A DNA stretch of 64,000 nucleotides from an uncultured Planctomycetota bacterium (GCA_963737655.1 CAVTTN010000002.1:1952001-2016000), one strand, 5' to 3'. Shown: positions 18,624-35,256, counted from the first letter of the stretch. Notes: generated by a model from the letters alone, not told the origin. A program made the numbers and translations.

Positions 18624-18648
18624 GTATTAGGTCGATCGGAGGCTCTGG

Positions 18649-19873: not shown

Positions 19874-19890
19874 GGCGGGAGACTCCCGCG

Positions 19891-20211: not shown

Positions 20212-20231
20212 CGGCGGGCACAAGAGACGCC

Positions 20232-20331
20232 GCCTAACCCGGCGCTGCAGCGGACCCGGCCGCCGCGGTCGGTTTCTGGTAACATCAAGGTCACTGGTCG
20301 GCGGCCGGTCCGCTGAGCTTGGTCGTTAGGC
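20232..20331 (+). repeat. attC site
   Basis: GCCTAAC...GTTAGGC; loop contains TGGTAACAT. Confidence 0.9.
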
Positions 20332-20655
20332 GGCTCAGGAGTCGAAGCCTTCGGTCGTGCTCGTCGTCGGCCTCGCCGGTCGCGCCTCGGCTCGACGACG
20401 CCATCGGTCGGGCCCCTGGAGTCGGCCTCGGCGGTGGTGCGCGTCGTCGCCCTCGCCGGCCGCGCCCCCGAGGTCGGGCCCGTCGGCCGGCGCCCCCTTG
20501 CCAACGCCGTCGGTCCGTGCCAGGATCGTCGGTGTCGGCGCGTGGGGCGTCGCCGGGGCGCCGCCTAACCCGGCGCTGCAGCGGACCCGGCCCGCGGTCG
20601 ACGATCACTCTCCTCTCAATCTCGCCGGGCGCGGGCCGGTCCGCTGAGCTTTGTC
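20325..20655 (+). repeat. Gene-less cassette, copy 3
   Basis: Repeat of 17662-17992. Confidence 0.85.
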
Positions 20656-20662
20656 GTTAGGC
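20563..20662 (+). repeat. attC site
   Basis: Identical to attC 17900-17999. Confidence 0.9.
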
Positions 20663-20680
20663 GGCTCGGAGGCAACCGCA

Positions 20681-21091
20681 ATGGCCGAGCCTTTCGACCG
20701 CATCGCCGCGCTGGGCGAGTTGCCCCCGACGCTCGCGGCACGCCTGCGGTTCCTCCCCGAGACCGATCGCTCCGTCATCGGCACCATCCGATGCGGCGTT
20801 CTGTTCGTCATGGCCTTCTGGAGCGGCCCCGCCCGGCTGGCCTTCGCCGAACTCAAGCGGGTGCTCGCGGCCGAGGACATCGCCGGCCGCTTAGAGTTGG
20901 TCGTCGTCGATACCGATGGCTGCCCCGACCTCCAGGATCAGCCCGAGTTCACCGGCAAGCTGCACGGCGCCGGCGAGGCCGCTTGGGTTAATCAGGGCGT
21001 CATTGTCTGCACGTCGGGCCTGGGCTATCATCCCGAGTGCTTCGGGCCGAATACGCGGCGCCTCCTGGGCGAATGCGCCGCCTCCCCGTGA
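20681..21091 (+). CDS. Cassette ORF, possible degenerate thioredoxin-like fold
   Basis: GGAGG RBS; AFWSGPA at a WCGPC-like position, later LVVVDTD; stop codon supplied by the IS end. Confidence 0.65.
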   Translation: MAEPFDRIAALGELPPTLAARLRFLPETDRSVIGTIRCGVLFVMAFWSGPARLAFAELKRVLAAEDIAGRLELVVVDTDGCPDLQDQPEFTGKLHGAGEAAWVNQGVIVCTSGLGYHPECFGPNTRRLLGECAASP

Positions 21092-21243
21092 ACTCTTCGC
21101 GCCGGCGGTTCGGCATCGGTTGATACTATGTGGGCATGATCATCGATCGGCCCGCATCCCCCCCGGCCCCCGCGACGACGGGGACGGCCCGATCCGGCTC
21201 GGCGGGGCTTGCGGTCGGGCGCCCCGCCTCCGACCCGTCGCCC

Positions 21244-22596
21244 TCACGACGGCGGCGACGGCGGCGACTTCGCCACCAGCTCGTAGCCCAGCGACCTCGC
21301 CTTGCGCCGCAGCGACCGCTCCTGCTTCGCGCGCACCTCGGCCTCGTACTCCGCCAGCGACCTCGACACGTACTCCTCGCCGTGCCTGAGCATCCGGTAC
21401 ACCAGCCGCGACAGCTTGTGCGCCGTCGCCGTGATCGCCCCCCGGCCGCCGATCCGGCCCTTGATCCGCCGGTAGAACTGGCCCGTCGCCGTCGCCGTCC
21501 GGCCCGCCGCCTGCGCCGCCATCCGCAGCGCCTGACCCACCCGGTTCTTGCCCTTGCGGGGCGTGCGACGCCGCTCGGTCTTGTTGCTCCGGTCGGTCCG
21601 CGGGCAGAGGCCCAGCCAGCTGGCGAAGTGCTTCTCGCTCGGGAACCGCCCCACGTCGCCGCCGAGCTCGGCCAGGATCACCGTCGCCGTCGTCGCGTCG
21701 ATCCCCTCGATGGCCGTCAGGTCCACGCCGATCGCCCGGGCCAGCTTGGCCGGGGCGTCGAACCGCACGTCGTTGGCCTTGCGGCCGCGCTTGCGGGGCC
21801 TCGCCGCGATCGGCCGGCCTTCGGAGCGGTCGGGCAGGCGGTCCAGCTCCTCGGCGATCCGGGCGTCGCACTCGTCGACCTGGCGGTGGAGGTAGTGGTA
21901 CAGGTCGGACGCCTGCCTCAGGGCGAACAGGTGCTCGGGCCGCCAGGTGCCCTCCAGGGCCCGGGCGATCTCCGCCTCGTCCCGGGCGCACCGCTCGTGC
22001 CGCAGCGCGGCCAGCTTCGTGGCGTCCCGCTCGCCGGCGAGGATCGCGGCGATGATCGCCGTGCCGGTGACGCCCGTGATGCTGCTGACGACCTCGGTCA
22101 GCTTCACATTCATCTGCTCCAAAGCCTTCTGCATGTGCTGGACGTGGTGCGAGGCGTACCGCACGAGCATCTGCCGCTGCCGCCAGTAGCCGCGCAGGGC
22201 CAGGACGGCCCCGGGCGGGCGGAAGGACGGGCGGAGCAGGCCGCACGAGTGGAGGCGCTGGAGCCACTGGCAGTCGAGCCGGTCGGTCTTGGGCCGGGCG
22301 CCGCAGTGGCTGGCCTGGCTCGGCTCGATGAGGAAGACCTCGAAGCCGCGCGATTCGAGCAGCTCGAACAGGGGGATCCAGTAGACGCCGGTGGACTCCA
22401 GGACCACCGAGGTGACGCCCTCGGCCCGGAACCAATCGGCCAGGGCGTGGAGGTCGGCCGAGCAGGCGCCGAAGGTGCGGACCCGTCCGGGCCCGACGCA
22501 GGCGACGTGGTTGTCGGAGTGGACGTCGACGGCGGCGGCGTGGGGGTGGACGACCGGCAGGGACGCGTCGGGATCGGGGGGCGTGCGGCGACTCAT
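21244..22596 (-). CDS. IS110 family transposase/recombinase
   Basis: RuvC-like DEDD residues AVDVH, LESTG, KTDRLD; C-terminal FASWLGLCP...S..RKG motif. Confidence 0.93.
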   Translation of the reverse strand: MSRRTPPDPDASLPVVHPHAAAVDVHSDNHVACVGPGRVRTFGACSADLHALADWFRAEGVTSVVLESTGVYWIPLFELLESRGFEVFLIEPSQASHCGARPKTDRLDCQWLQRLHSCGLLRPSFRPPGAVLALRGYWRQRQMLVRYASHHVQHMQKALEQMNVKLTEVVSSITGVTGTAIIAAILAGERDATKLAALRHERCARDEAEIARALEGTWRPEHLFALRQASDLYHYLHRQVDECDARIAEELDRLPDRSEGRPIAARPRKRGRKANDVRFDAPAKLARAIGVDLTAIEGIDATTATVILAELGGDVGRFPSEKHFASWLGLCPRTDRSNKTERRRTPRKGKNRVGQALRMAAQAAGRTATATGQFYRRIKGRIGGRGAITATAHKLSRLVYRMLRHGEEYVSRSLAEYEAEVRAKQERSLRRKARSLGYELVAKSPPSPPS

Positions 22597-22629
22597 GGCG
22601 AGGGCTCCGGCGGGTGGGGGGCCAAGCCG

Positions 22630-22850
22630 TCGCGGGCCGAGAGGGGGTCCGGGGACGAGGTAGTCTCCCCGACGGGAACGTCGCGGGGCCGTGTTGACAC
22701 GGCGCCGCGGGTCACCAATGATGGGGCCACGGCCTCTCGGGCCAAGCTAACCTGCGGGCGGCGAGCACCAGGGAGATGACGGCCGGGAGGCCCGCGGCGG
22801 CGACGCCGATCGTACCGCGCCCCGGTTCACGTCCGTCGGGGAGCGGTCGC
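22630..22850 (-). ncRNA. Putative bridge/seek RNA of the IS110 element
   Basis: Non-coding region 5' of the transposase with stems (ccgagagg/cctctcgg, gccgtgt/acacggc), a target match ctaacct (22747-53) and an own-end match ctccccg (22665-71). Boundaries approximate. Confidence 0.65.
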
Positions 22851-22867
22851 AGGCCGCGCGGAGAGTT

Positions 22868-22965
22868 AACCTCGCGCTGCAGCGGACCCCGGCCACGGGC
22901 CGCGCTTTCTCTTCTCTCGATGCTCGGTGGTCCGTGGCCGTGTCCGCTGAGCTTTGTCGTTAGGT
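22868..22965 (+). repeat. attC site, interrupted by the IS110 element
   Basis: aacctcgcgctgcagcgg...gttaggt. Confidence 0.88.
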
Positions 22966-22980
22966 GGCTCGGAGCTGTCA

Positions 22981-23367
22981 ATGCTCGTTGACTCATGCAT
23001 TCCGGTCATACCCAGCGCCGATCTGGAGAGGAGCCTGCGCTTCTGGGTGGATGGGCTTGGTCTGTCCATGGATCGTGCCATGCGGCACGACGGTCGCCTC
23101 GTCGGTTGTATGGTGCATAACGAGCGGCTGTATTTTTGGCTCAATCAACGAGCCGGTCCCCCGACCGCGTCGGAGAATTACGAGGGCATACGCCTCTACT
23201 GGACGCCAGGCAACATCAAGGCCATTAGGGAGCGTCTCCTGCGACTCGGTTACGCGGCTTCCGAGATTGAGGATCGTGAATATGGACAGGCCGAGTTCGT
23301 CGTCAAGGATGATGACGGGTACTCCCATTGCTTCGGAGTCGCTACAACAAGAGCGGCTAGCCTATGA
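22981..23367 (+). CDS. Cassette ORF, VOC/glyoxalase/bleomycin-resistance family
   Basis: IPVIPSADLERSLRFWVDGLGL...EDREYGQAEFVVKDDDG. Confidence 0.85.
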   Translation: MLVDSCIPVIPSADLERSLRFWVDGLGLSMDRAMRHDGRLVGCMVHNERLYFWLNQRAGPPTASENYEGIRLYWTPGNIKAIRERLLRLGYAASEIEDREYGQAEFVVKDDDGYSHCFGVATTRAASL

Positions 23368-23380
23368 CCGCAAGGGTGCC

Positions 23381-23480
23381 GCCTAACCCGGCGCTGCAGC
23401 GGACCCCGCACCGCCGCGGCGCCTGTTGTCTTATCATTGCTCGCTCGGCGGTGCGGGTCCGCTGAGCTTTTGCGTTAGGC
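23381..23480 (+). repeat. attC site
   Basis: GCCTAAC...GTTAGGC. Confidence 0.9.
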
Positions 23481-23497
23481 GGCGGAGAGATTCCCCG

Positions 23498-23845
23498 TTG
23501 GCGATCGACAACCCAAACGTCATCGACCTAATCGGCACCGACCGGACGACCGGCGAGGCCGTGCTCACCATCAGCGATCACCTCGAATGGGACGACCGCA
23601 ACGAGCATCTGCTGATCTTGCAAGAGAAAATCAACCGCTACATCGGTTTCATCGAGTCTGGCGAACTGCTGGAAAACTACGCGGGTGCGGCGGGCCGACT
23701 GATCCGCGTCGAGGTCGTTTGCAAGTATCCGCCGAGTGAAGTCGGCGAGCGATTCCTGAACCTCGCCAGCGAAACGTTCGAGAAGGCCGGTTGGTCCCTC
23801 ACTTGGCGTTGGTGGCCGAGCAAGCAGCTCGACGCCTCTTCGTGA
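23498..23845 (+). CDS. Cassette ORF, DUF6572-like protein
   Basis: TTG start after GGAGAG; VIDLIG...LTISDHLEW...HLLILQEKINRY..FIESGEL. Confidence 0.75.
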   Translation: MAIDNPNVIDLIGTDRTTGEAVLTISDHLEWDDRNEHLLILQEKINRYIGFIESGELLENYAGAAGRLIRVEVVCKYPPSEVGERFLNLASETFEKAGWSLTWRWWPSKQLDASS

Positions 23846-24217
23846 ACTCTTTGGCTGGGAACGGCCATCGACGCGCGACACTACCCCAACCCCAGGCTTT
23901 GTGGCCGGGCAGCGGCGAGGTCCGGGTAGCAAACCGACGGATTCAAGAGCGGCGGACGAGGCGCGGGCCGAGAGGGGAGTCGGTTACGCTTGCAGTCTCT
24001 TCGACGGGAACATCCCCGCGAGTCGGCTCGCGGGGCGTCGCCGATGACCGGATCACGACCTCTCGGGCCAGGCTAACCTACGGGCATGGAGCACCGAGGT
24101 GGATCCGGCCACCGACCCGCGCCACGAACCGGGCTACGCCGCGCCGGGTCGGTGGGCAAGTCGGCCCCGGCCCCCGTTCACGCCCCCTCGGGAGCGGACG
24201 AAGGCCGCAGGATGGTT
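23838..24217 (-). mobile_element. 380-bp element, copy c (type 1/type 2 chimera)
   Basis: Left part matches copy a, right part matches copy f. Confidence 0.9.
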
Positions 24218-24313
24218 AACCTCGCGCTGCGGCGGACCCGGCCCGCCGCGGTGCTTTCCTGTGCTATCATCATTTCCTCGGCGGTGCGGGTCCGCTGAGT
24301 TTTGTCGTCAGGG
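24218..24313 (+). repeat. attC site, interrupted; R' degenerate (GTCAGGG)
   Basis: aacctcgcgctgcggcggacc...ggtccgctgagt...gtcaggg. Confidence 0.8.
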
Positions 24314-24329
24314 GGATTGATCGTTTACC

Positions 24330-24601
24330 GTGACCAGCAGCCGTAAGATGTCTCAGCCCGAGTTCGATGAGTGGGCCCGCTCGCGCCGACTTGGCCCTTG
24401 GCGTCACGTCCTCGTTCGGGGCGTGCTCTCGAAGGGCCTACCAATCGGCGCCGGCTGGTTGCTCGGTCATTGGCTCGCGGGTACGCTGTCCTGGAGTTTT
24501 GCGATCTGCCTGCTCCTCATCATGATCGTTGCCGGTGCCGTCGATGGGGTTAGTCGATGGCGAGGAGGGCTCCCAATCGGCTCGGCGCGAGCACGCGGCC
24601 T
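24330..24601 (+). CDS. Cassette ORF, small two-helix membrane protein; the frame runs on into element d
   Basis: Two hydrophobic stretches; the true C-terminus is uncertain. Confidence 0.55.
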
Positions 24602-24981
24602 CTTCGTGAACTCTTTGGCTGGGAACGGCCATCGACGCGCGACACTACCCCAACCCCAGGCTTTGTGGCCGGGCAGCGGCGAGGTCCGGGTAGCAAACCG
24701 ACGGATTCAAGAGCGGCGGACGAGGCGCGGGCCGAGAGGGGAGTCGGTTACGCTTGCAGTCTCTTCGACGGGAACATCCCCGCGAGTCGGCTCGCGGGGC
24801 GTCGCCAATGACCGGATCACGACCTCTCGGGCCAGGCTAACCTACGGGCAGGGAGCACCAAGGTGGAGACGGCCGGGAGGCCCGCGCCACACTCAGGCTA
24901 CGCCGCGCCGGGTCGGCGGGCAAGTCGTCCCCGACCCCCGTTCACGCCCCGTCGGGAGCGGACGAAGGCCGCAGGATGGTT
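24602..24981 (-). mobile_element. 380-bp element, copy d (type 1)
   Basis: Same sequence and insertion point as copy a. Confidence 0.9.
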
Positions 24982-25077
24982 AACCTCGCGCTGCAGCGGA
25001 CCCCGCACCGCCGCGGCGATTCTTGTGTTATCATCGCGTTCTCGGCGGTGCGGGTCCGCTGAGCTTTGGCGTTAGGC
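24982..25077 (+). repeat. attC site, interrupted by element d
   Basis: aacctcgcgctgcagcgg...gttaggc. Confidence 0.88.
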
Positions 25078-25105
25078 GGCTCGGCGAAGATGCCTCGGGA
25101 CACCC

Positions 25106-25501
25106 GTGACGTTCGACCCCGACCGAATCATGACCCTCTCGACCATGCAGTTCCGACGTTTCGGAATCGCGTGCTGCTATCGGTTGGGGTGCGACCGCAA
25201 AGACAAGCGTCTCGCGAAGGCGCTCAAGAGACTGGAGCAATCGCTGGGGCCGCCGGCCGACGAGAGCATGCGTCGTGACGCGCTCAACGCCGCCAACTCC
25301 GCTTGCCGAGACCTCTCCGCAAGCAGCGGCGTGATACAGGTCGTTGCCCGCACCCTTGTTTGTGCCTGCTGGGACGGTCCCAATGAGAATCTGATTGGGA
25401 ATTTCGAAGCGGCGCTTGAACAAGGAGAGCACTTGAGCAGGTCCGAGATCAAGGACATTGAAAGCGAGATCTTTCGGGCTATCCTGGGCGCCTCTTCGTG
25501 A
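25106..25501 (+). CDS. Cassette ORF, hypothetical protein
   Basis: Fills the cassette; stop supplied by element e. Confidence 0.7.
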   Translation: MTFDPDRIMTLSTMQFRRFGIACCYRLGCDRKDKRLAKALKRLEQSLGPPADESMRRDALNAANSACRDLSASSGVIQVVARTLVCACWDGPNENLIGNFEAALEQGEHLSRSEIKDIESEIFRAILGASS

Positions 25502-25873
25502 ACTCTTTGGCTGGGAACGGCCATCGACGCGCGACACTACCCCAACCCCAGGCTTTGTGGCCGGGCAGCGACGAAGTCCGGGTAGCAAACCGACGGATTC
25601 AAGAGCGGCGGACGAGGCGCGGGCCGAGAGGGGAGTCGGTTACGCTTGCAGTCTCTTCGGCGGGAACATCCCCGCGAGTCGGCTCGCGGGGCGTCGCCAA
25701 TGACCGGATCACGACCTCTCGGGCCAGGCTAACCTACGGGCAGGGAGCACCAAGGTGGAGACGGCCGGGAGGCCCGCGCCACACTCAGGCTACGCCGCGC
25801 CGGGTCGGCGGGCAAGTCGTCCCCGACCCCCGTTCACGCCCCGTCGGGAGCGGACGAAGGCCGCAGGATGGTT
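25494..25873 (-). mobile_element. 380-bp element, copy e (type 1, a few SNPs), followed by a truncated attC
   Basis: Followed by aacctcgcgct and then unrelated sequence. Confidence 0.9.
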
Positions 25874-25909
25874 AACCTCGCGCTCGACACCCAAGCCGGA
25901 GCATGTTGC

Positions 25910-26701
25910 ATGCGCTCATTAAGATTTGTCGTTATTACACTGTCGTTGACGGTTCGGTTCGCACCGCTCTATGCCCAGACGCCTGGAAAAAAACCGCCGA
26001 GCCGGGTTGTTGGCAGCGTGTATGGGAAGGCCGTCACCGCGGACCAGGTTGGCCTGACCTTGCCGATCGACAACACCAAGAAATTCGATGCACGAGATAC
26101 ACCCGCGTGGGAACAGATGGAGCGGGTCGCGGTGGCGTTCGGTAGCCCGGTCATGGAGCGGTTGGTCGCGCAGCGGAAGCTCGACGCCACGGCCGACGAG
26201 ATGGCCGCGTACAGGAGGGTCAACCTGATATTGAAAGGGCAGATGCTACGCGAGACGGAAGCTCGTTTGACGAAGGTCAAGGAGGAACTCGCGTCGCCCC
26301 ACCTGTCGGATGGAAGGAAAGCGGAACTGGAGAAAGAACGAGAGACGTTCGAACAGAGCCTCCCGGCGCAGCGCGAATCCGCCAGGCGTAATGACGACGA
26401 TGATGATGCTTTCGGTCGCGGGCTCATCCTCTCCTGGAAGGTCGAGCGGGAGCTGTACCGGACCTACGGCGGTCGCTTGATCTGGCAGCAATTCGGTATC
26501 GAGGCGCTCGACGCCCGCCGCCTGCTGTTCGAGGAAGCGGAGAAGAAGGGTGACCTGAAGTTCGACGATCCGGGGGTGCGGCGTCTATTTTATTACTACT
26601 CCAACATGCCTCACACTTTCGTCGGTGAGAAGGAACCAAGATTGCTGGAAGAGAAGCCTTGGTTCCTGAAGGATGGGGACGAACCGCTCCCCGAGAAGTG
26701 A
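25910..26701 (+). CDS. Cassette ORF, secreted helical protein
   Basis: GGAG RBS; signal-peptide-like MRSLRFVVITLSLTVRFAPLYA; coiled coil. Confidence 0.75.
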   Translation: MRSLRFVVITLSLTVRFAPLYAQTPGKKPPSRVVGSVYGKAVTADQVGLTLPIDNTKKFDARDTPAWEQMERVAVAFGSPVMERLVAQRKLDATADEMAAYRRVNLILKGQMLRETEARLTKVKEELASPHLSDGRKAELEKERETFEQSLPAQRESARRNDDDDDAFGRGLILSWKVERELYRTYGGRLIWQQFGIEALDARRLLFEEAEKKGDLKFDDPGVRRLFYYYSNMPHTFVGEKEPRLLEEKPWFLKDGDEPLPEK

Positions 26702-26764
26702 GTGATGGGGCCGCGGCCGGAATCGAGGACATGGCGGATTTTGGCCCTAACCCGCTATGTCATG

Positions 26765-26865
26765 GCCTGACCTCGCGCTGCAGCGGACCCCGCACCGCCG
26801 CGGCGCCTTCTGGTAGAATCAACGCTGCTCGGGCGGTGCGGGTCCGCTGAGCTTCGGCGTGAGGC
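26765..26865 (+). repeat. attC site (GCCTGAC...GTGAGGC variant)
   Basis: Conserved L boxes and stem. Confidence 0.8.
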
Positions 26866-26885
26866 GGCGGAGGGAGGCCGATCCC

Positions 26886-27332: not shown

Positions 27333-27704
27333 ACTCTTCTCCATCGAACGGCCGTCGATGCGCGACATTCCCCCGACCCCTGGCCGTGTGGCCGGGCAGC
27401 GACGAGGTCCGGGTGGCAATCCGACGGATTCGGGATCGGCGATCGAGGCGCGGGCCGAGAGGGGAATCGGTTACGTTCGGAGTCTCTTCGACGGGGACAT
27501 CCCCGCGAGTCGCCGCGCGGGGCGTCGCCGATGACCGGATCACGACCTCTCGGGCCAGGCTAACCTACGGGCATGGAGCACCGAGGTGGATCCGGCCACC
27601 GACCCGCGCCACGAACCGGGCTACGCCGCGCCGAGTCGGTGGGCAAGTCGGCCCCGGCCCCCGTTCACGCCCCCTCGGGAGCGGACGAAGGCCGCAGGAT
27701 GGTT
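27325..27704 (-). mobile_element. 380-bp element, copy f (diverged type 2)
   Basis: Same length, ends and guide-like segments; many internal substitutions. Confidence 0.9.
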
Positions 27705-27801
27705 AACCTCGCGCTGCGGCGGACCCCGCACTGCCGCTACACTTTCTGCTACGATCAACGTCGCTCGGGCGGTGCGAGGCCGCTGAGCTTGGGCGTTAGG
27801 C
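27705..27801 (+). repeat. attC site, interrupted by element f
   Basis: aacctcgcgctgcggcgg...gttaggc. Confidence 0.85.
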
Positions 27802-27883
27802 GGCGTCGCGGTCGGCCAGAATGTGACGAACTCGCGGAGCGTGGAACGCAGGCCGCGCGGAAACCGATCGTGAGGTTAGCGAC

Positions 27884-28399
27884 ATGAAGCTGAATGTTTC
27901 CAGCCTCGCCTTCGCCCGACACCGAGACGAAGTGCCCGCGCGGTGGCTCCTCGATATCCTCTGGCTCGTCCTCGCCTCCGGCGAGGACACGAATGGCGAG
28001 TATTCCGTCATCGAGCAGTTCATGCCCGTCGGGTCCGGCCCGCCGCCGCACGGGCATCCGTTCGAGGACGAGATGTTCTACGTCCTGGCCGGGGAGATGA
28101 CCGTCATCGTCGGCGGGCAGGAGATCGTCTTGAAGCCCGGCAGCCTGGGCCACGTCCCGCGCAACGTCGTCCACGAATTCAAGGTGACCGGCACCGACGT
28201 GTGCCATTGCCTGAACTACTACACCCCCGCCGGGTTCGAGCAGTCGGTCCTCGGGTGTTCGCGGCCCGCGGAACGGCGCGAGTTGCCCCCGCCCGGGCTG
28301 GACCCGCTTGACTCTCCGCAGGTGATGCAATTCTTCAACAACTACTGGGTCGCCGGGGCAACGCTCCCCTGGGCCCAGCAGAAGTGGTCGCCCGGTTGA
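27884..28399 (+). CDS. Cassette ORF, cupin domain protein
   Basis: GPPPHGHPFEDEMFYVLAGE...VPRNVVHEF. Confidence 0.88.
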   Translation: MKLNVSSLAFARHRDEVPARWLLDILWLVLASGEDTNGEYSVIEQFMPVGSGPPPHGHPFEDEMFYVLAGEMTVIVGGQEIVLKPGSLGHVPRNVVHEFKVTGTDVCHCLNYYTPAGFEQSVLGCSRPAERRELPPPGLDPLDSPQVMQFFNNYWVAGATLPWAQQKWSPG

Positions 28400-28491
28400 G
28401 CGCCAAGCGGCACGCGCCCATGCCGGTTGGGCCGGAAAACCGCATCCCGGAGTGCCGGGGCCTCGACGCCTTCCCGCTGGCGGAGGGCGGC

Positions 28492-28592
28492 GCCGAAACT
28501 GGCGCGGGAGCGGACCCGGCCGCCGCGATTGGTTTCTGGTAATATTCTAAGTCGCAGGCCGGCGGCCGGTCCGCGGAGCTTCGGCGTTAGGC
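28492..28592 (+). repeat. attC site (R'' degenerate, GCCGAAA)
   Basis: gcggacccggcc...ggccggtccgcggagc...gttaggc. Confidence 0.78.
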
Positions 28593-28607
28593 GGCGAGGC
28601 GCGACCG

Positions 28608-29057
28608 ATGGCGAAGGGACTGCCGGGGACGGTCGCCGTCAACCACGACGATTACCACGCCGAATACGTCGGGCGAACCAAGGACGGCGCGCAATTCTTC
28701 CTCACGACGCCCTTCGTGCCGGGGGTCGGAGACCAGCCGGGCCGGGAGTTCATCGCGCTCTACCTGTTCGACAAGGCTGGCCAACTCCAGGCGGCCACGA
28801 TCGACGACCTGGGGCCTCGCGAGACGATGGATCTGGGGGCGAGGATGGCCCGCCGAGACGAGTTGCTCGCCTCGCTGGGTGAGGTCAGCTATCAGCGAAT
28901 CAAAGTCGCCCCGTTTCGGATCGAGAGGTTCGGGGTTGAGTTCGGGTTCATCCCGCAGCCGCCCGAGGAGCCGGGCGAGGACTGGAGCGTCATCGTGATG
29001 CCGGGAGACGTCATGTGCTTCTGGCCGCCTTGGTCCAGCGGCGACTACGATACGTAA
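28608..29057 (+). CDS. Cassette ORF, hypothetical protein
   Basis: RBS GAGG; fills the cassette. Confidence 0.75.
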   Translation: MAKGLPGTVAVNHDDYHAEYVGRTKDGAQFFLTTPFVPGVGDQPGREFIALYLFDKAGQLQAATIDDLGPRETMDLGARMARRDELLASLGEVSYQRIKVAPFRIERFGVEFGFIPQPPEEPGEDWSVIVMPGDVMCFWPPWSSGDYDT

Positions 29058-29066
29058 TGCCGCGAC

Positions 29067-29167
29067 GCCTAACCTGGCGCGGCGTCGGACCCCGCACCGC
29101 CGCGGCGCGTTCTGCTACGATCGAAGGCCGCTCGGGCGGGTGGGTCTGCTGAGCTTTGGCGTTTGGC
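29067..29167 (+). repeat. attC site
   Basis: GCCTAAC...GTTTGGC. Confidence 0.82.
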
Positions 29168-29185
29168 GGCTCGGAGGGTCAGGCG

Positions 29186-29521
29186 TTGGAGGAGGCGTGT
29201 CCCCTCGAAGAAAAGCTGTCCAATGTCGCAGCCGACCTGCTGTCCGAGCGGCGGTTCGAGGCATTCGTCCGCCGCCTGTTCGCGGCCCCTCCCGGCGTGT
29301 GGCAGGGCGTGGCGGCCTGCTGCTCAAGCATGCCGGTGCTGCCGGGCCTCGCCGCCGAGGTCTTCGCCGGCCACGCCGAGTGCTTCGTGGTCACGCATCT
29401 GCCATGGCCCGGCCTTCCCTCCCGCGATCCCTACGCTCTGGTGCTGTTCCTGCACGCCGATATCATGTGGTCCACCACCGCGTTGTACAATCGCGCCGTG
29501 TTCGGGGCCGACTCTTCGTGA
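29186..29521 (+). CDS. Cassette ORF, hypothetical protein
   Basis: TTG start after GGAGG; stop supplied by element g. Confidence 0.6.
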   Translation: MEEACPLEEKLSNVAADLLSERRFEAFVRRLFAAPPGVWQGVAACCSSMPVLPGLAAEVFAGHAECFVVTHLPWPGLPSRDPYALVLFLHADIMWSTTALYNRAVFGADSS

Positions 29522-29893
29522 ACTCTTTGGCTGGGAACGGCCATCGACGCGCGACACTACCCCAACCCCAGGCTTTGTGGCCGGGCAGCGGCGAGGTCCG
29601 GGTAGCAAACCGACGGATTCAAGAGCGGCGGACGAGGCGCGGGCCGAGAGGGGAGTCGGTTACGCTTGCAGTCTCTTCGACGGGAACATCCCCGCGAGTC
29701 GGCTCGCGGGGCGTCGCCAATGACCGGATCACGACCTCTCGGGCCAGGCTAACCTACGGGCAGGGAGCACCAAGGTGGAGACGGCCGGGAGGCCCGCGCC
29801 ACACTCAGGCTACGCCGCGCCGGGTCGGCGGGCAAGTCGTCCCCGACCCCCGTTCACGCCCCGTCGGGAGCGGACGAAGGCCGCAGGATGGTT
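29514..29893 (-). mobile_element. 380-bp element, copy g (type 1)
   Basis: Inserted in GACT^AAC. Confidence 0.9.
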
Positions 29894-29988
29894 AACCTCG
29901 CGCTGCAGCCGACCCCACCCGCCGCGGCGGTTTTCGGTATAGTCGATGTCGCTCGGGCGGGTGGGTCTGCTGAGCTTTGGCGTTAGGC
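29894..29988 (+). repeat. attC site, interrupted by element g
   Basis: aacctcgcgctgcagccgacc...gttaggc. Confidence 0.85.
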
Positions 29989-30004
29989 CCAAGGAGGGCG
30001 GGTC

Positions 30005-30775
30005 GTGGCTCGGAAGCGGAAGAGCACCCCCGGTCCGTACTTGTTGTACCTTGAGGTCCTCCGCGGTCGCATCCCGGACGTCAGCCGCTTCCCGTACAAC
30101 CTGCCCGCCTTCCGCGCCCTGACGACGCTGCCGTTCCATCCCAAGGTGACGTTCCTCGTCGGGGAGAACGGGTCCGGCAAATCGACACTCCTGGAGGCCG
30201 TCGCCGTCGAGTGCGGGTTGAATCCCGAAGGCGGCAGCCGGAACTTCCACTTCGCCACGCGGGCCTCGCACTCGTCGCTCGACGAATGCGTTCGGCTCGC
30301 GAAGGCCCCGGCTTCGCCCGGCGACTGGTACTTCTTGCGGGCCGAGAGCTTTTACAACGTGGCTTCGGAGATCGAACGTCTCGACGAGGGACCGGGAGGC
30401 GGGCCGATCATCGGTGCCTACGGCGGCAAGTCGCTCCACGAGCAGTCGCACGGGGAGTCTTTTTTCGCCCTGTTCCAGAACCGGTTCCGGGACCATGGGC
30501 TGTACCTGATGGATGAGCCGGAGGCCGCGTTGTCGCCGAAGCGGCAACTCCAATTCCTCGCATTGCTCCACGACTACGTGTGCCGGGGCGGGCAGTTCGT
30601 CATCGCCACGCACTCACCGATCATCATGGCGTACCCCGAATCGCGCATCTATTTGCTGGACGGCGAGGGTATCCGGGAGATTGCTTACACGGACACCGAG
30701 CACTACCAGATCACTCGGGGATTCCTGAGCAACCCGCAGCGGTCGCTGTCGGTGCTGCTCGGTGAGGAGCGATAA
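30005..30775 (+). CDS. Cassette ORF, stand-alone ABC/AAA-type ATPase
   Basis: Walker A GENGSGKS, signature QSHGE, Walker B LMDEPE, H-loop ATHSP. Confidence 0.9.
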   Translation: MARKRKSTPGPYLLYLEVLRGRIPDVSRFPYNLPAFRALTTLPFHPKVTFLVGENGSGKSTLLEAVAVECGLNPEGGSRNFHFATRASHSSLDECVRLAKAPASPGDWYFLRAESFYNVASEIERLDEGPGGGPIIGAYGGKSLHEQSHGESFFALFQNRFRDHGLYLMDEPEAALSPKRQLQFLALLHDYVCRGGQFVIATHSPIIMAYPESRIYLLDGEGIREIAYTDTEHYQITRGFLSNPQRSLSVLLGEER

Positions 30776-30779
30776 ATAG

Positions 30780-30883
30780 GCCCAGCCTCGCGCCGCTGCA
30801 GCGGACCCGGCCCACCTCCTCGCTTTCTGGTAACATGAAGGTCACTCTCGGCGGCGCGGGTCCGCTGAGCTTGGGCGTTAGGC
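30780..30883 (+). repeat. attC site (R'' degenerate)
   Basis: gctgcagcggacc...ggtccgctgagc...gttaggc. Confidence 0.8.
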
Positions 30884-30899
30884 GTGTCGCGAAAGCACA

Positions 30900-31469
30900 A
30901 TGAGCGAACCGAGACTTACATTCGCAACGCAATCCGAGTGGGAAGACTGGCTTGAAGCCAATGGCAGCACTTCGCCCGGCGTGTGGCTTCGCTTGGCGAA
31001 GAAGTCTGCCGAGCAACCAACGGTCACTTATGCACAAGCGCGAGAAAGCGCTCTTTGCCACGGGTGGATCGATGGCCAAAAGCAATCGGAAAACCAGCAC
31101 TATTGGCTTCAGCGCTTTACACCGAGAACTGCCAAGAGCATCTGGTCGAAGATCAACAAGGAAAAGGCGGAGGCACTCATCACATCGCAACGGATGCGGG
31201 CAGCAGGTCTGGTCGCGATAGAACGGGCAAAATCGGACGGAAGATGGGATGCGGCATACTCATCGGCGAGCACTTCGACCGTCCCTGACGACCTGCAAGA
31301 AGCCCTTGATGCAAACCCAAGAGCCAAAACGTTTTTTGCGACGCTCAATAGCCAAAATAGGTATGCCATCTTGTTTCGAATTCAAAAAGTCAAGAAGGCC
31401 GAGACACGGGCGAAGAAGATCGCTCAATTCATTGAAATGCTCAATGATGGCGAAAAGCTCTATCCATAA
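30900..31469 (+). CDS. Cassette ORF, YdeI/OmpD-associated (bacteriocin-protection) family
   Basis: WEDWL, ALCHGWIDG, RFTPR..KSIWSKINK, PDDLQEAL, KKAETRAKKI; visibly lower GC than the host. Confidence 0.85.
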   Translation: MSEPRLTFATQSEWEDWLEANGSTSPGVWLRLAKKSAEQPTVTYAQARESALCHGWIDGQKQSENQHYWLQRFTPRTAKSIWSKINKEKAEALITSQRMRAAGLVAIERAKSDGRWDAAYSSASTSTVPDDLQEALDANPRAKTFFATLNSQNRYAILFRIQKVKKAETRAKKIAQFIEMLNDGEKLYP

Positions 31470-31553
31470 CGAAGCCTGTCTAGTTGATGCAGAAAAGTTT
31501 ATCAAAATGATACATGTTAAATATTGATACTTGTCATAGACTGCGAGCGTCCC

Positions 31554-31658
31554 GCCTGACCTCGCGCCGCAGCGGACCCGGCCCGCCGCGGCGCCCGCTG
31601 GGGATGCGTAGGACAGACTCGGCGGGCCGGTCAGGTCCTCTGAGCTTGATCGTTAGGC
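31554..31658 (+). repeat. attC site (GCCTGAC variant)
   Basis: gcctgacctcgcgccgcagcggacc...gttaggc. Confidence 0.8.
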
Positions 31659-31674
31659 GGCAGGAGACCCCACG

Positions 31675-32180
31675 GTGGACGAGCCTGGGTTTTGGAAGAT
31701 CATCGATGCGGCCGGGCGAGCAGCCCACAGTGACCCCGAGCGGCAACTCTCCGCCGTCCGCAAGCGGTTGAGCGATCTCGCGCCGAGGAACTGGTCGAGT
31801 TCCACGCGATCTTCAACCGCAAATTGGCCGAAGCCTATACCTGGGACCTCTGGGGCGCCGCCTATCTCATCAACGGTGGGTGTTCTGATGATGGCTTCGC
31901 CTACTTCCGGGCCTGGCTTATCTCATGTGGTCAATCCGTCTACTCTTCAGCCCTCCGCAAACCCGACTCACTGTCGAGCATCGTCGATCCCGATCGCGAC
32001 GATTACGAGTTCGAGGATCTGTGGGGGATCGCCCAAGTCATCTACGAAGAGACGACGGGTAGCGAGATGCCAACGGTCGATTTTGCTTGGCCTGCCGAGC
32101 CGAAGGGGGATCGCTGGGATTTCGACGACGACGAACAAGTCACACGCAAGCTCCCCAAACTGGCCGAGCTTTACGCCTGA
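31675..32180 (+). CDS. Cassette ORF, DUF4240 family, 1-bp frameshift near 31785
   Basis: MDEPGFWKII in one frame; LWGAAYLINGGCSDDGFAYFRAWLI...LPKL in another. Confidence 0.8.
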
Positions 32181-32274
32181 CCTCGCGCTGCAGCGGACCC
32201 CGCACCGCCTCGGTGCTCCCCGTGCTATCATGGATTCCTGGGCGGTGCAGGTCCGCTGAGCTCTATCGTTAGGC
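32175..32274 (+). repeat. attC site (GCCTGAC variant; TGA is the gene's stop)
   Basis: gcctgacctcgcgctgcagcgg...gttaggc. Confidence 0.85.
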
Positions 32275-32289
32275 GGCTTGGAGACACCG

Positions 32290-32853
32290 ATGGAGGAATC
32301 GGACCTCGCCGCGATTGCGCACCGGCTCGCTCGCCCGAGCGTCCTGCTCAAGCGCGACGCCGCCGTGGGTGCTCTCGCCGGCGTGTGGGGCGGCGCAGGC
32401 GTTGTGCCCGCCCCGGCCGGGCCTTTCCGGCACTGGCTCAGCATCGACTGCCGCTTCCTCCCTGCCGGGCTCGGGCCGCCTGGCGGCGTCCTGAGCGTCT
32501 ACACCAACGAACAGGACTGCGTGTCCGGTTACGTGGGCCACGACCCGGCGGCGAGCCTCGCGGTCGGCGAGGGGCATCCTCTTTATGCACAGCCCAGGTC
32601 CTCGCTTCCACCGCCGGAGGCCCTGTCCGCAGAGGACGATGCGACGTACATTCACCTCTGGCAATCCAACTGTCCTCTGTATGCGAGTGAGGCGACGGCG
32701 GTGCTCGGCGGCTGGCATTTCCCCTGGCCCGACGGCGATTGGGAGGAGTTGCGTGAGCATCGCCTTCTGGTCTGGACGATCGAGGACTCGGAGCCGTGGG
32801 TCGAGGTGTGGGCCGAACCCTTCGGGTTCCGCGTTCTGCAGCGGATCACGTAA
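32290..32853 (+). CDS. Cassette ORF, hypothetical protein
   Basis: GGAG RBS; fills the cassette. Confidence 0.75.
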   Translation: MEESDLAAIAHRLARPSVLLKRDAAVGALAGVWGGAGVVPAPAGPFRHWLSIDCRFLPAGLGPPGGVLSVYTNEQDCVSGYVGHDPAASLAVGEGHPLYAQPRSSLPPPEALSAEDDATYIHLWQSNCPLYASEATAVLGGWHFPWPDGDWEELREHRLLVWTIEDSEPWVEVWAEPFGFRVLQRIT

Positions 32854-32857
32854 CGCC

Positions 32858-32915
32858 GCCTAACCGGGCGCTGCAGCGGACCCCGCACCGCCGCATCTGA
32901 TCTTTGGCGTTAGGC
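32858..32915 (+). repeat. Short 58-bp attC with internal deletion
   Basis: GCCTAAC...GTTAGGC but the right arm of the stem is missing. Confidence 0.75.
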
Positions 32916-32929
32916 GGCTTGGAGGCGAC

Positions 32930-33286
32930 GTGTCCGAAGGCGCACTCTTCAAGCCCGGTCAACTCGACTTCGTCCACTCGATCCGAGACCTGCTCGGCGA
33001 GGTCCGTGAGCGACCAGCCATGTGGCTCGGTGAGAAGTCGCTGACCGGGCTCAAGTGCCTCCTGTTCGGCGACGAGATCGCTTGTGGCAAGCATGGCATC
33101 ACCGAGCCGGATCAACTGCCGGATGACGTCCCCTGGCGGGGTTTCCGCGAGTGGCTTGCGGGGCGTTATGATAGAGTCGGCTGGAGCGTCGATTGGTACT
33201 GGTTGCTCATCGAACATTCGTCCTCGCAGGAGGAGGCGTTCGATCGCTTCTTCGAGCTGCTCGCGGAATACGAGGCCGCCGTCTAA
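32930..33286 (+). CDS. Cassette ORF, hypothetical protein
   Basis: GTG start after GGAGG; TAA stop inside the R'' box. Confidence 0.75.
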   Translation: MSEGALFKPGQLDFVHSIRDLLGEVRERPAMWLGEKSLTGLKCLLFGDEIACGKHGITEPDQLPDDVPWRGFREWLAGRYDRVGWSVDWYWLLIEHSSSQEEAFDRFFELLAEYEAAV

Positions 33287-33380
33287 CCTCGTGCTGCAGA
33301 GGACCCCGCACCGCCGCGGCGGTTTACGCGTTATCCTCGTACTCTCGGCGGTGTGGGTCCGCTGAGCTTTGGCGTTCGGC
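33281..33380 (+). repeat. attC site
   Basis: GTCTAAC...GTTCGGC. Confidence 0.85.
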
Positions 33381-33395
33381 GGCGGAGAATCAACC

Positions 33396-33803
33396 ATGAT
33401 CCGACGGCCAGACCTCCGCCCCAGGGTCCGCCATCTCCTGATCGGCGTGGCCGTCGCAGCAGTCGGCCTCTTCGTATTCCGGGACACCTGGGATGGTGGC
33501 GAGGAGGTCATCGTTCGCCAAGATCCGGAGGATCGGCGACCGTGGAATCGCGGCGATGCGATCCGAGTCCGGCTGGATGGCGACCGTTTGCGCGCGTACG
33601 GCCTCTCCAAAGCAGACGTGGTGGAAGCGCTGACACCGAGCACCATTCTCGGTTCCCAGAAGCGAGTCGATCCGCCCGCGGGGGTCGTGTACTTCAGGCG
33701 CCTCCCACGAGCCGACCAGCTCGAAAACTGCGTCTTGAAGGCCGATGCCGAGGGGGAGATCGTCCGGCTCAAGGATGTTGCGAGGGTCGAAGTCGGTCGG
33801 TGA
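33396..33803 (+). CDS. Cassette ORF: one TM helix plus a stand-alone AcrB-like docking (DN) subdomain
   Basis: AIRVRLDGDRLRAYGLSKADVVEAL...VLKADAEGEIVRLKDVARVE aligns by eye with the permease at 13162. Confidence 0.75.
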   Translation: MIRRPDLRPRVRHLLIGVAVAAVGLFVFRDTWDGGEEVIVRQDPEDRRPWNRGDAIRVRLDGDRLRAYGLSKADVVEALTPSTILGSQKRVDPPAGVVYFRRLPRADQLENCVLKADAEGEIVRLKDVARVEVGR

Positions 33804-33924
33804 AGGCTCGGCATCGCCCATCGATTCTCGACGGGATGGGGAGGGGGTCGAGTGGCTCGGCTCGGGCGGGCCGTCCGTCAGAGAGGGTGGTCACCGCCGC
33901 CGGAAGCGTGCCGGCCGGTCTGCC

Positions 33925-34024
33925 GCGTAACCTCGCTCCGCCGCGGGTTCCGCGGCGCCGCGGCGCTTGTGGTAGCATCACCGATGTCTCGGCGGTGCGG
34001 ATCCGCTGAGCTTGATCGTTTGGC
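33925..34024 (+). repeat. attC site (degenerate)
   Basis: gcgtaacctcgc...tccgctgagc...gtttggc. Confidence 0.75.
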
Positions 34025-34065
34025 GGCGGAGATCCGACCGGGCTTTACAGGAAGGAGTTCCAGGT

Positions 34066-34506
34066 ATGCGATCGCGTTCCGTCTGGCTATGCGGCTCGAT
34101 CGTCGTGGCCCTGGCTTGCGCGGGGTTGAGGGCTGACGTTCCGCCCCTCGGCGTCGATGAGTTGAAACAGCAGGCGACTCACGTCGTCGTCGGGAAGCTC
34201 ACGACGGTGTATCGCTCGGCAAAAACCGGCGACGACTTCGTGAGGACGAGCGGCATCGCCGAGATCGTTGTCGAGAAGGTCGAGAAAGGCGGCGGGCCAA
34301 AGGTTGGTGAGGTCACGTTCGTCCGGTTCTGGAACCAGCACTGGGTTGGTAAGGGAATGGTTCCCCCGCACAGCCCCGGCCATCACGTCCCGGCGGAGGG
34401 CGCGGTCGTCCGCGCCTACCTGAAGCGAGGCCAGGATGGCAGCTACGAGGCCCTGTTGCCGAATGGATTGGCGGTCGTGGCCGAGCCCGCGATCCGGCCT
34501 CGATGA
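34066..34506 (+). CDS. Cassette ORF, secreted hypothetical protein
   Basis: AGGAG RBS; signal peptide ending GLRA. Confidence 0.75.
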   Translation: MRSRSVWLCGSIVVALACAGLRADVPPLGVDELKQQATHVVVGKLTTVYRSAKTGDDFVRTSGIAEIVVEKVEKGGGPKVGEVTFVRFWNQHWVGKGMVPPHSPGHHVPAEGAVVRAYLKRGQDGSYEALLPNGLAVVAEPAIRPR

Positions 34507-34527
34507 GCGTACGGCTCCGGAAGCTGC

Positions 34528-34626
34528 GCCCAACCTCGCTCTGCGGCGGACCCGGCCACGCGGGCGCGGTATGATCGTGCGGGGCGTACCGGAATGGGGC
34601 CGGTCCGCGGAGCTTGGTCGTGAGGC
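34528..34626 (+). repeat. attC site (GCCCAAC...GTGAGGC)
   Basis: gcggacccggcc...ggccggtccgcggagc. Confidence 0.8.
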
Positions 34627-34644
34627 GGCGGAGTCAAAGACGCT

Positions 34645-35088: not shown

Positions 35089-35089
35089 C

Positions 35090-35191: not shown

Positions 35192-35256
35192 GGCTACCCC
35201 CTTGCGTGAGGAAAAGGGGTCAGGAGTGCTCTGGAGAAAACCCCGGTGATAGCGTA

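Follow-up and report, generated by a model that had tools for sequence, protein, structure and literature searches.

We lean towards the interpretation that many attC sites in the window, by which we mean the whole 64,000-nt stretch of DNA from an uncultured Planctomycetota bacterium, belong to a lineage that carries a candidate extended -10 promoter in its loop, from which the next cassette would be expressed. An extended -10 (TGn) promoter of the sigma-70 type has TG one base upstream of TAnnnT and works without a -35 element, and its -11 A and -7 T are the most critical bases. By sequence, the attC motif TGnTAnnnT shares the TG, the TAnnnT, the lack of a -35 element, the -11 A and the -7 T. 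Judging from its attC sequences, the lineage spans 11 or more genera within a single planctomycete family. An earlier sequence-only reading had likewise taken the loop motifs for promoters that keep the array expressed, and this interpretation is partly supported by the results below.

The region is an integron cassette array with an attI-like head and without an integrase of its own. It contains 22 full-length attC sites and one short attC of 66 nt, and its cassette ORFs lie on the + strand, with start codons mostly about 20-30 nt past the crossover. The head matches the attI region of the true integron in this genome with 93.6% identity over 172 nt (blastn, L001 2489-2660), and its 3′ limit is the crossover between G and TTAGGC, with the G at 17662. 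Within the head, a palindrome with 28-nt arms (17563-17620) holds a CATAAT box (17611-17616) oriented toward the cassettes, the array's own Pc-like box; the true integron has TATAAT instead. A tblastn search of the window with the genome's IntI gave no integrase match (best E 3.6), and no integrase was found by Pfam among 12 flanking ORFs. The sole intI of the genome lies 4.8 Mb from the window array, on the main 7.6-Mb contig (C2:6777135-6778073), where it has its own attC array; its product matched TIGR02249 at 474.6 bits (cut-off 265). With at least two attC sites and no intI nearby, the window array qualifies as a CALIN. Like the sedentary chromosomal integrons and CALINs in the parts of the survey by Cury et al. 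2016 (10.1101/030866; PMC4889954) used here, it has co-oriented cassettes, homogeneous attC sites and no nearby integrase, with a single intI elsewhere. Unlike a plain CALIN, it keeps a near-intact attI/Pc copy at 17509-17662, and unlike the CALINs in those parts of the survey, about half of its attC loops carry a promoter-like box. The features of the array are as follows.

17509..17662, + strand: attI-like head, copy of the intI-attI intergenic region of the true integron
17896..18003, + strand: attC, loop class N1, no -10-like box
18520..18627, + strand: attC, loop TGGTGTCCA, motif not matched
19437..19546, + strand: attC, loop class N2 (polypyrimidine), no -10-like box
19770-19877 and 20559-20666: N1 attC sites, identical copies of 17896..18003
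20228..20335, + strand: attC, TGGTAACAT at 20277-20285 in the apical loop
21077..22871, - strand: IS-bearing segment (PF01548, PF02371), part of the array anatomy and separate from the promoter motif
22860-22969: second N2 attC
23377..23484, + strand: attC, plain TATCAT at 23432-23437 without TG at -15/-14; a DUF6572 ORF starts 61 nt past the hexamer
24210..24317, + strand: attC, TGCTATCAT at 24262-24270
24974..25081, + strand: attC, TGTTATCAT at 25026-25034
26761..26869, + strand: attC, TGGTAGAAT at 26811-26819; SUKH-1 ORF starts at 26886
27697..27805, + strand: attC, TGCTACGAT at 27747-27755; cupin ORF starts at 27884
28488..28596, + strand: attC, TGGTAATAT at 28537-28545
29063..29171, + strand: attC, TGCTACGAT at 29113-29121
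29886..29992, + strand: attC, CGGTATAGT, hexamer TATAGT at 29938-29943; AAA ATPase ORF starts at 30005
30776..30887, + strand: attC, TGGTAACAT at 30828-30836; OmdA-domain ORF starts at 30900
31550..31662, + strand: attC, no -10-like box
32171..32278, + strand: attC, TGCTATCAT at 32223-32231
32854..32919, + strand: short 66-nt attC (covariance model, 40.5 bits), apical part missing, no loop and no motif
33277..33384, + strand: attC, CGTTATCCT, hexamer TATCCT at 33332-33337
33921..34028, + strand: attC, TGGTAGCAT at 33970-33978
34524..34630, + strand: attC, CGGTATGAT, hexamer TATGAT at 34570-34575, in a third, more 5′ register
35086..35195, + strand: last attC of the array, no -10-like box

The window sites are genuine integron attC sites. 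Alignment of 20 of them revealed outer boxes GCCTAAC...GTTAGGC and inner boxes CAGCGGACC...GGTCCGCTG, and the R′′/L′′/L′/R′ hairpin was recovered both by a covariance model and by alifold, in which 5 of the 14 pairs showed compensatory changes. The 5′ arm has a two-base bulge that faces a single base of the 3′ arm, and one further base bulges out after GGACC. DNA folding of six top-strand attC sites left an apical region of about 20-24 nt unpaired; the fold z-scores were -4.75 to -5.66 in three of them and -1.3 to -3.8 in the others. All ten TGnTAnnnT motifs and all three plain -10 hexamers (TATCAT at 23432, TATAGT at 29938 and TATGAT at 34570) reported by the sequence-only reading are present on the + strand, and we added a fourth plain hexamer, TATCCT at 33332. 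All of these motifs do lie within genuine attC sites, as that reading proposed, but their placement in the open loop holds only in part: the motif is in the unpaired apex in four of the six minimum-free-energy folds, and in the attC sites at 26761 and 32171 a mini-hairpin of 4-5 bp inside the loop pairs part of it.

The motif TGNTANNNT occurs 18 times in the window, compared with 8.46 ± 2.76 in shuffles (maximum 14; none of 100 reached 18). Outside the attC loops, + strand matches were found at 21121 (left end of the IS) and 33169 (in a cassette ORF) within the span covered by that reading, and at 35247, just beyond the last attC. TG at -15/-14, one base before TAnnnT, is found in 10 of the 22 full-length window attC sites and in 41 of the 86 attC sites of the genome; 4 further window sites have TAnnnT only, and 8 have neither. 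On contig C2, 41 of the 878 motif occurrences fall in the roughly 9 kb that is made up of attC sites. Because 8 of the 22 window sites and 34 of the 86 genome sites have no TAnnnT at all, the loop box is dispensable for an attC, and not all cassettes would be served. The proposal that each attC drives the next cassette was therefore overstated; with the exact motif in 10 and any TAnnnT in 14 of the 22, the array would be served in blocks rather than cassette by cassette.

The motif is strongly biased to the cassette strand. All 41 genomic occurrences in attC are on the top strand, and the bottom strand has none among the 86 sites. In a loop-agnostic scan of 142 unique attC interiors from 13 genomes (11 genera of one planctomycete family), where the arrays of relatives had been picked from matches of a model that included loop columns and are thus a biased sample, the motif was found on the top strand of 62 interiors and on the bottom strand of 1, far above the 1.0 ± 1.0 (maximum 5) obtained from 300 dinucleotide shuffles of the interiors; since attC sites of one family are paralogues, these counts are non-independent events. 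TAnnnT itself was found in 84 interiors on the top strand, 11 on the bottom and 23.5 in shuffles.

The pattern of conservation is that of a -10 element. Among the 41 loops of a family picked by its flanks alone, we found T at -15 in 33, G at -14 in 35, G at -13 in 34, T at -12 in 35, A at -11 in 33, A at -8 in 27 and T at -7 in 32, whereas -10 and -9 varied freely. Conservation confined to the promoter-critical positions, as the sequence-only reading described it, is borne out in part: -10 and -9 are free, but register A also keeps the -13 G (34 of 41) and its flanks, TTTC and CAAGG. In register B, the whole TATCAT is invariant in all 19 motif-selected loops except for one C at -8. A similar distance of all motifs from R′ also needs qualification: measured from the motif start to the G of R′, the ten window sites have no single value and fall into two registers, at 45 nt (three sites) or 48-49 nt (seven sites). 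Counted back from the 3′ end of the interior, the motif begins at 27 nt in 18 loops, at 30 nt in 33, at 31 nt in 6 and at 35 nt in 2. It is present in at least five stem lineages, and the two largest each have both main registers. Such a spread over registers and stem lineages suggests that selection acts on the motif as such rather than on a fixed column.

This pattern bears on the alternative that the loop descends, with slow drift, from a small number of ancestral attC templates, resembles an extended -10 only incidentally and drives no meaningful transcription. The attC sites of sedentary integrons are homogeneous within a lineage, and loop classes without any -10 (N1, the polypyrimidine N2 and GGTCAnnCAACGGTT, some of which share a TTCTGGT start) are equally conserved, which means that loops can be conserved by descent alone; conservation of the flanks and -13, together with the fully invariant TATCAT of register B, is what descent would leave behind. 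Descent fits less well with -10 and -9 being free to vary while -11 and -7 are not, with the T, G, T, A and T that are kept in all of 19 different 9-mers, with two to three registers in five or more stem lineages, with the near absence of the motif from the bottom strand (0 of 86 and 1 of 142), and with enrichment of the same word upstream of ordinary genes of the genome. We consider this alternative unlikely.

The loop is the sole AT-rich stretch of a very GC-rich attC palindrome of about 108 nt in a genome of 70% GC, and its length is constant while the motif slides inside it. Both observations would suit a conserved loop that serves recombination rather than expression, either as a stretch richer in AT where extrusion of a cruciform or hairpin could nucleate or as a site at which the folded strand is bound by a factor of the host or one associated with the integrase. 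According to two studies (PMC2727003, PMC5027507), how an attC folds and which strand is chosen are influenced by the size and structure of its variable terminal region, which would also favour such a role. AT-richness alone, by contrast, explains neither a base-specific T, G, T, A, T with free -10 and -9 nor the same word upstream of genes elsewhere in the genome; quite different loops and loopless 66-nt attC sites coexist in the same arrays; and the integron papers searched describe no sequence-specific role for the loop. A role in recombination in place of expression seems decidedly unlikely.

The attC motif seems to follow the same promoter grammar as the tRNA genes of the host. Upstream of many of the 61 predicted tRNA genes we found TTGACA-17-TAnnnT, and upstream of four of them TGnTAnnnT, in three cases without a -35 element. 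A search for a -35 element at the attC-loop motifs found none; most of the strong tRNA promoters of the host, by contrast, contain such an element. With a crude ORF map, 152 of the 837 motif occurrences outside attC (18.2%) are followed on the same strand by an ORF at 15-250 nt, versus 5.9-11.5% for four permuted controls. The spacing to the ribosome-binding site and start codon of the cassette that follows is also sensible: in 12 of 14 window sites, those with a clear downstream ORF, the hexamer lies 47-129 nt before the start codon, and in 9 of these 12 it lies 59-72 nt before it. Solitary attC sites have co-oriented ORFs downstream whether the motif is kept or not, and this comparison did not discriminate.

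On the promoter reading, the candidate element (TGnTAnnnT without a -35), located on the cassette-coding strand in what becomes the unpaired apical loop of the attC, would be bound in duplex DNA by the housekeeping sigma-70-type holoenzyme, which would melt the AT-richer loop from roughly -17 to +3. Transcription would start about 7 nt downstream of the hexamer, in the 3′ arm of the attC, and run on past L′ and R′ into the next cassette. The predicted leader of about 50-65 nt would end with a GGAG-type ribosome-binding site and the start codon of that cassette, and it could not form the attC hairpin because the 5′ arm would be missing. Every cassette with the motif would thus bring along a portable promoter, placed at the 3′ end and serving any sequence downstream. 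Such promoters would render expression partly independent of distance from Pc, and if the loop motif is a promoter, stored cassettes may be turned on individually.

The motif might instead act in RNA. The cassettes are co-oriented, so read-through would transcribe attC sites as hairpins, and the loop, which is exposed in the fold, could be recognised by an RNase or RNA-binding protein that processes or stabilises cassette mRNAs. This we find scarcely credible: the spaced T-G-n-T-A-n-n-n-T is typical of DNA recognition by sigma, the motif slides between loop registers, and no Rfam family matched at the gathering threshold across the window or at E up to 1 over 23800-24330, the sole stretch searched at that level, which includes one attC.

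Very improbable, too, is a promoter that couples transcription to recombination, in which holoenzyme binding and melting of -11 to +2 at the centre of the palindrome would nucleate hairpin extrusion. Such coupling would account for the apical position, for the constant loop length with a sliding box and for retention on a single strand. If it were true, how mobile a cassette is would depend on how far polymerase occupies the attC of that cassette, with its neighbour expressed by the same element, and once the circle is excised the promoter would point at the gene of the cassette itself.

The sequence-only reading had contrasted its promoters with classical arrays in which a single Pc leaves distal cassettes silent, but this premise is out of date, as the relevant parts of two reports already document promoters within arrays (PMC2945992, PMC11014356). 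Michael and Labbate (2010) describe, for Vibrio sp. DAT722, a sigma-70 promoter that spans an attC and gives about 40-fold more downstream transcript (PMC2945992). It resembles our candidate in overlapping an attC and reading into the next cassette, and it supports expression far from Pc. In the sections of that report drawn on here, however, it is an isolated example, which primer walking revealed in one array, and is not conserved lineage-wide; its position is given as the junction of attC and cassette, with no mention of the apical loop (PMC2945992). Its transcript was measured; the planctomycete motif is a family-wide candidate promoter. As reported in the parts of Blanco et al. 2024 used here, gene-less cassettes of Vibrionaceae superintegrons hold promoters that drive downstream cassettes, and transcription starts even inside an attC, in cassette F2; starts in attC are discussed there as possibly spurious transcription in AT-rich DNA (PMC11014356). 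Those promoters lie in the body of non-coding cassettes, whereas the planctomycete candidate belongs, as a conserved part, to the recombination site of ordinary coding cassettes in a genome of 70% GC.

Other attC-associated promoters are the outward promoters (Pout) of group IIC-attC introns (Leon et al. 2010, PMC3001079) and of insertion sequences in attC (PMC8876359), which, according to the portions of these papers cited, restore expression of downstream cassettes. Pout belongs to a mobile element inserted in an attC, whereas the planctomycete motif is part of the attC loop itself. In the array, the IS and its 387-nt derivative end at R′′ and are separate from the loop, which begins some 45 nt further downstream. 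The motif is found in loops of attC sites both with and without either element, which speaks against a Pout borne by an IS or a group IIC intron as its source. One copy of the 387-nt element (window 23800-24330) was searched at E up to 1 and matched no group II intron family. The IS at 21077..22871 has six near-full copies in the genome, five of which overlap a covariance-model attC match or lie within 40 nt of one.

The window, with a GC content of ~70%, contains a same-strand array of ~108-nt repeats at 17.5-35.2 kb. In an alignment of 20 of these sites, the repeats show the classic attC layout, with outer boxes GCCTAAC and GTTAGGC, inner boxes CAGCGGACC and GGTCCGCTG, and an unpaired apex closed by additional GC-rich stem pairs. 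RNAalifold returned a fold of 14 pairs, five of them with compensatory changes, and z-scores of the single-strand DNA folds were as low as -5.66. The cassette ORFs in the window lie on the + strand and encode a glyoxalase, DUF6572, SUKH-1, a cupin, an AAA_15/21 ATPase, an OmdA domain and DUF4240, which is typical cargo for integron cassettes. A tRNA-Ala(cgc) predicted by ARAGORN at 23497-23583 (-) is probably spurious, given its length of 87 nt and its position within the DUF6572 cassette ORF (E 2.5e-34).

No integrase was detected by Pfam in the 12 ORFs flanking the array, and tblastn of the genome's own IntI against the window gave no match (best E 3.6). The integron integrase (TIGR02249, 474.6 bits against a cut-off of 265) is encoded 4.8 Mb away, at 6777135-6778073 of the main contig, where it adjoins one attC place. 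The head of the array nevertheless retains the following features:

17509-17680, copy (93.6% identity) of the stretch between intI and attI in the genome's true integron (region L001, 2489-2660)
17563-17620, palindrome with 28-nt arms bearing two divergent -10-like boxes
17662, retained crossover G|TTAGGC

The lack of an integrase together with the copied attI region indicates that the array is either an integrase-less integron copy or a CALIN, that is, an attC cluster lacking an integron integrase, with an attI-like head. In the true integron both palindrome boxes are TATAAT, and in the window the cassette-side box is CATAAT; judged by sequence, they look like a cassette promoter (Pc) and an integrase promoter (Pint) placed back to back.

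The extended -10-like word TGNTANNNT occurs 18 times in the window versus 8.46 +/- 2.76 times in shuffled sequence, and none of 100 shuffles reached 18. All ten motif sites listed by the sequence-only reading were found on the + strand, each within an attC, and its three plain -10 hexamers (TAnnnT without TG) were present where it had placed them; a fourth plain hexamer, TATCCT, lies at 33332. The motif starts 45 nt (three sites) or 48-49 nt (seven sites) upstream of the G of R'. In four of six top-strand MFE folds the motif sits in the unpaired apex, and in the remaining two a 4-5-bp hairpin inside the loop pairs part of it. Among the 22 full-length attC sites of the window, ten have the exact motif, four have TAnnnT only, and eight have neither, so the earlier proposal, in which every attC may drive the cassette that follows it, is too strong. 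The attC loops have no -35 and would therefore need to act as extended -10 promoters. Accordingly, a two-hexamer promoter scan of 17000-36000, which returned five sites, had none in attC loops, as expected for boxes of this kind. A terminator-promoter module was abandoned, since terminator-like sites were not enriched (10 found versus 12.9 expected). The CAT of the motif was also considered as a bottom-strand start codon, and was rejected: no suitably spaced ribosome-binding site was found for it, and the cassette ORFs are on the + strand.

A covariance model was then built from 20 window attC sites and applied at E <= 0.01, with 150 of 10,733 first-look candidates scored. It gave at least 90 rows genome-wide; once three rows that repeated sites on the reverse strand and a short site of 66 nt had been removed, 86 attC sites at ~15 places remained. 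The motif was present in 41 of these 86 sites on the cassette strand and in none on the opposite strand. Counting both strands, the 7.6-Mb main contig holds 878 occurrences of the word, 41 of which fall within ~9 kb of attC. The model also matched 38 of 61 genomes including its own: within the family, 31 of the 36 other genomes gave a match, and in the remaining families of the class 6 of 24 did.

To guard against bias from the loop-aware model, a loop-agnostic scan that used only the R''/L''/L'/R' boxes as a pattern was applied to 20 array regions from 12 relatives plus the own genome. After removal of reverse-strand duplicates, 142 unique attC interiors from 13 genomes and 11 genera were obtained, with the motif on the top strand in 62 and on the bottom strand in one. 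Enrichment over shuffles, which the sequence-only reading had proposed as a check, was found: 62 of 142 interiors compare with 1.0 +/- 1.0 (maximum 5) in 300 dinucleotide-preserving shuffles, although the relatives' arrays were chosen from matches of the loop-aware model, and the counts are not independent events because attC sites are paralogues. TAnnnT alone was found in 84 interiors on the top strand and 11 on the bottom strand (shuffles, 23.5 +/- 4.2). All 13 genomes scanned have at least one motif-bearing attC. The motif observation is confirmed, and it extends to a whole attC lineage across 11 genera. Solitary attC sites are followed by a co-oriented ORF both where the motif is kept (two sites) and where it is lost (three).

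The 62 motif-bearing interiors contain 19 different 9-mers, the most frequent being TGGTATCAT (16), TGCTATCAT (11) and TGGTAACAT (9). Measured back from the 3' end of the interior, the motif begins at 30 nt in 33 loops, 27 nt in 18, 31 nt in six and 35 nt in two, with three other loops at 26, 28 or 29 nt, and total loop length is constant across these registers. The motif is spread over at least five stem lineages, of which the two largest each contain both main registers (GGCCCGC, 17 loops at 30 nt and three at 27 nt; GCACCGC, 12 at 27 nt and three at 30 nt). We further defined a loop family by its flanks (TTTC upstream and CAAGG downstream, at least 7/9 matches) with no selection on the motif. 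In the resulting 41 loops, the counts were T33 G35 G34 T35 A33, two freely varying positions, and A27 T32, and 27 loops had the exact motif. This is the profile of an extended -10, in which -11 A and -7 T are fixed and -10 and -9 are free. The sequence-only reading, which held conservation to be confined to promoter-critical positions, is thus partly right: -13 G and the flanks are conserved too in the 41-loop family, and in register B, one of the two main motif placements, all 19 motif-selected loops share the whole TATCAT hexamer, bar one C at -8.

That descent alone accounts for the loop sequence is unlikely, yet this explanation is still alive, because loop classes without -10 likeness, namely N1, the polypyrimidine class N2 and the GGTCAnnCAACGGTT loops, are equally conserved; some of them share a TTCTGGT start. 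The GGTCAnnCAACGGTT class was found in genomes G008, G021 and G028 by the box scan, while the model matches show it in G017 and G025; another such class is a polypyrimidine loop on CCACGGGCCGCG stems. In the more distant G060, G056 and G032, attC sites with a CACCTGAC-type L box have different loops again. A role of the loop in folding or recombination, which would account for an AT-richer apex of fixed length, is rather improbable, as it leaves unexplained the base-specific pattern and the behavior of the word elsewhere in the genome.

With respect to that behavior, many textbook TTGACA-17-TAnnnT promoters lie upstream of the 61 tRNAs predicted by ARAGORN, including:

653305, tRNA-Phe
1941128, tRNA-Asp
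2180705, tRNA-Ile
2275512, tRNA-Ala
2971771, tRNA-Pro
7161697, tRNA-His

TGnTAnnnT is found upstream of four of the 61, three of which have no recognisable -35. On a crude ORF map of 5,189 high-GC3 ORFs, 152 of the 837 motif occurrences outside attC (18.2%) were non-coding and 15-250 nt upstream of a same-strand ORF, versus 75/652, 161/2,712, 142/1,728 and 200/2,842 (5.9-11.5%) for four permuted control words. These results suggest that, outside attC, the word acts in this genome much as a promoter element would.

In the window, 12 of the 14 attC sites bearing a -10-like box are followed by a clear next-cassette ORF. Its start codon lies 47-129 nt past the hexamer (n=12; 59-72 nt in nine), usually with a GGAG-type box just upstream. 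Of the other two sites, one faces a gene-less 331-bp cassette and the other a cassette without a clear ORF. A transcript starting ~7 nt past the hexamer would include only the 3' arm of the attC, so that the attC hairpin could not form in the RNA. An RNA-level role of the loop is very improbable; Rfam gave no match over the window at the gathering threshold, and at E up to 1 over 23800-24330 only a chance CRISPR-DR29 match (21 bits against a cut-off of 39). We lean slightly towards the motif-bearing attC loops acting as extended -10 promoters that read into the next cassette, an interpretation that is plausible and well framed. A motif-bearing cassette would then carry a portable promoter for its downstream neighbor. 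That promoter melting at the apex might also nucleate hairpin extrusion, linking transcription to cassette mobility, is a long shot.

In the standard integron model, expression of the promoterless cassettes depends on how far they lie from Pc, and large arrays are mostly silent memory. If the loops are promoters, an expression signal can reside in the recombination site itself, older cassettes would not be silenced when a new cassette inserts, and integrase-less arrays could remain expressed; the loops would also offer a concrete, mutable sequence for testing position-independence of array expression in a non-model phylum. In the available text of earlier reports, one sigma-70 promoter of Vibrio sp. 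DAT722 bridges an attC, with the downstream transcript ~40-fold up (Michael and Labbate 2010, PMC2945992), and promoters are described in gene-less cassettes, along with transcription starts even inside one attC that may be spurious according to the authors (Blanco et al. 2024, PMC11014356). The available part of a 2022 review (PMC8876359) covers cassette-borne, IS-borne, intron-borne, ORF-less-cassette and fused-cassette promoters, and a conserved attC-loop promoter is not among the types it names. Likewise, the literature searched yielded single attC-associated promoters and promoter cassettes, and no conserved attC-loop promoter.

The array also hosts an IS110-family element at 21077-22871 (PF01548 and PF02371), of which the genome has six near-full copies, together with a 387-nt repeat that is a non-autonomous derivative of it. 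The derivative shares the IS ends plus 167 nt (75% identity) of the non-coding region upstream of the transposase, which in IS110 elements is where guide (bridge/seek) RNAs are encoded. Its 28 copies (25 at 98-100% identity, three at 88-95%) include seven in the window:

18144-18530, 387-nt derivative
19061-19447, 387-nt derivative
23834-24220, 387-nt derivative
24598-24984, 387-nt derivative
25490-25876, 387-nt derivative
27321-27707, 387-nt derivative
29512-29896, 387-nt derivative

All seven end at an R'' box, six at intact attC sites and one at a truncated attC at 25866. Genome-wide, five of six IS copies and 26 of 28 derivatives have a covariance-model attC match overlapping them or at most 40 nt away, in the same orientation. 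This behavior resembles that of the IS1111-attC group (cf. PMC11187229). An RNA gene and a group II intron were both rejected as readings of the 387-nt repeat (no Rfam match in the one copy searched, 23800-24330; fold z-score -0.5). At 25866-25885, the attC ends after R'' and the spacer, downstream of a 387-nt element, and is followed by an AT-richer 277-aa ORF (25868-26701) with no Pfam match, which points either to disruption of the attC or to an additional insertion.

The gene-less 331-bp cassette is present at 17663-17993, 19537-19867 and 20326-20656 and in seven other genome copies, all ten at 99-100% identity and some in tandem. It has flat GC1/2/3 with no coding signature, two internal 52-nt direct repeats, and an attC of class N1 without a -10 box. 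The true integron and the window array both carry this cassette in first position after attI. Short attC-like sites of ~66 nt, in which the R and L boxes are kept and the entire apical part is absent, were found in this genome and four relatives:

window 32854-32919, short site
L017 2687-2753, short site
L027 2157-2222 and 2772-2837, short sites
L028 327-394, short site
L022 1989-2056, short site

Directly past the last attC lies an inverted repeat (35227-35368; 67-nt arms, 84% complementary, 8 nt between), and the motif occurrence TGATAGCGT at 35247 falls within it.
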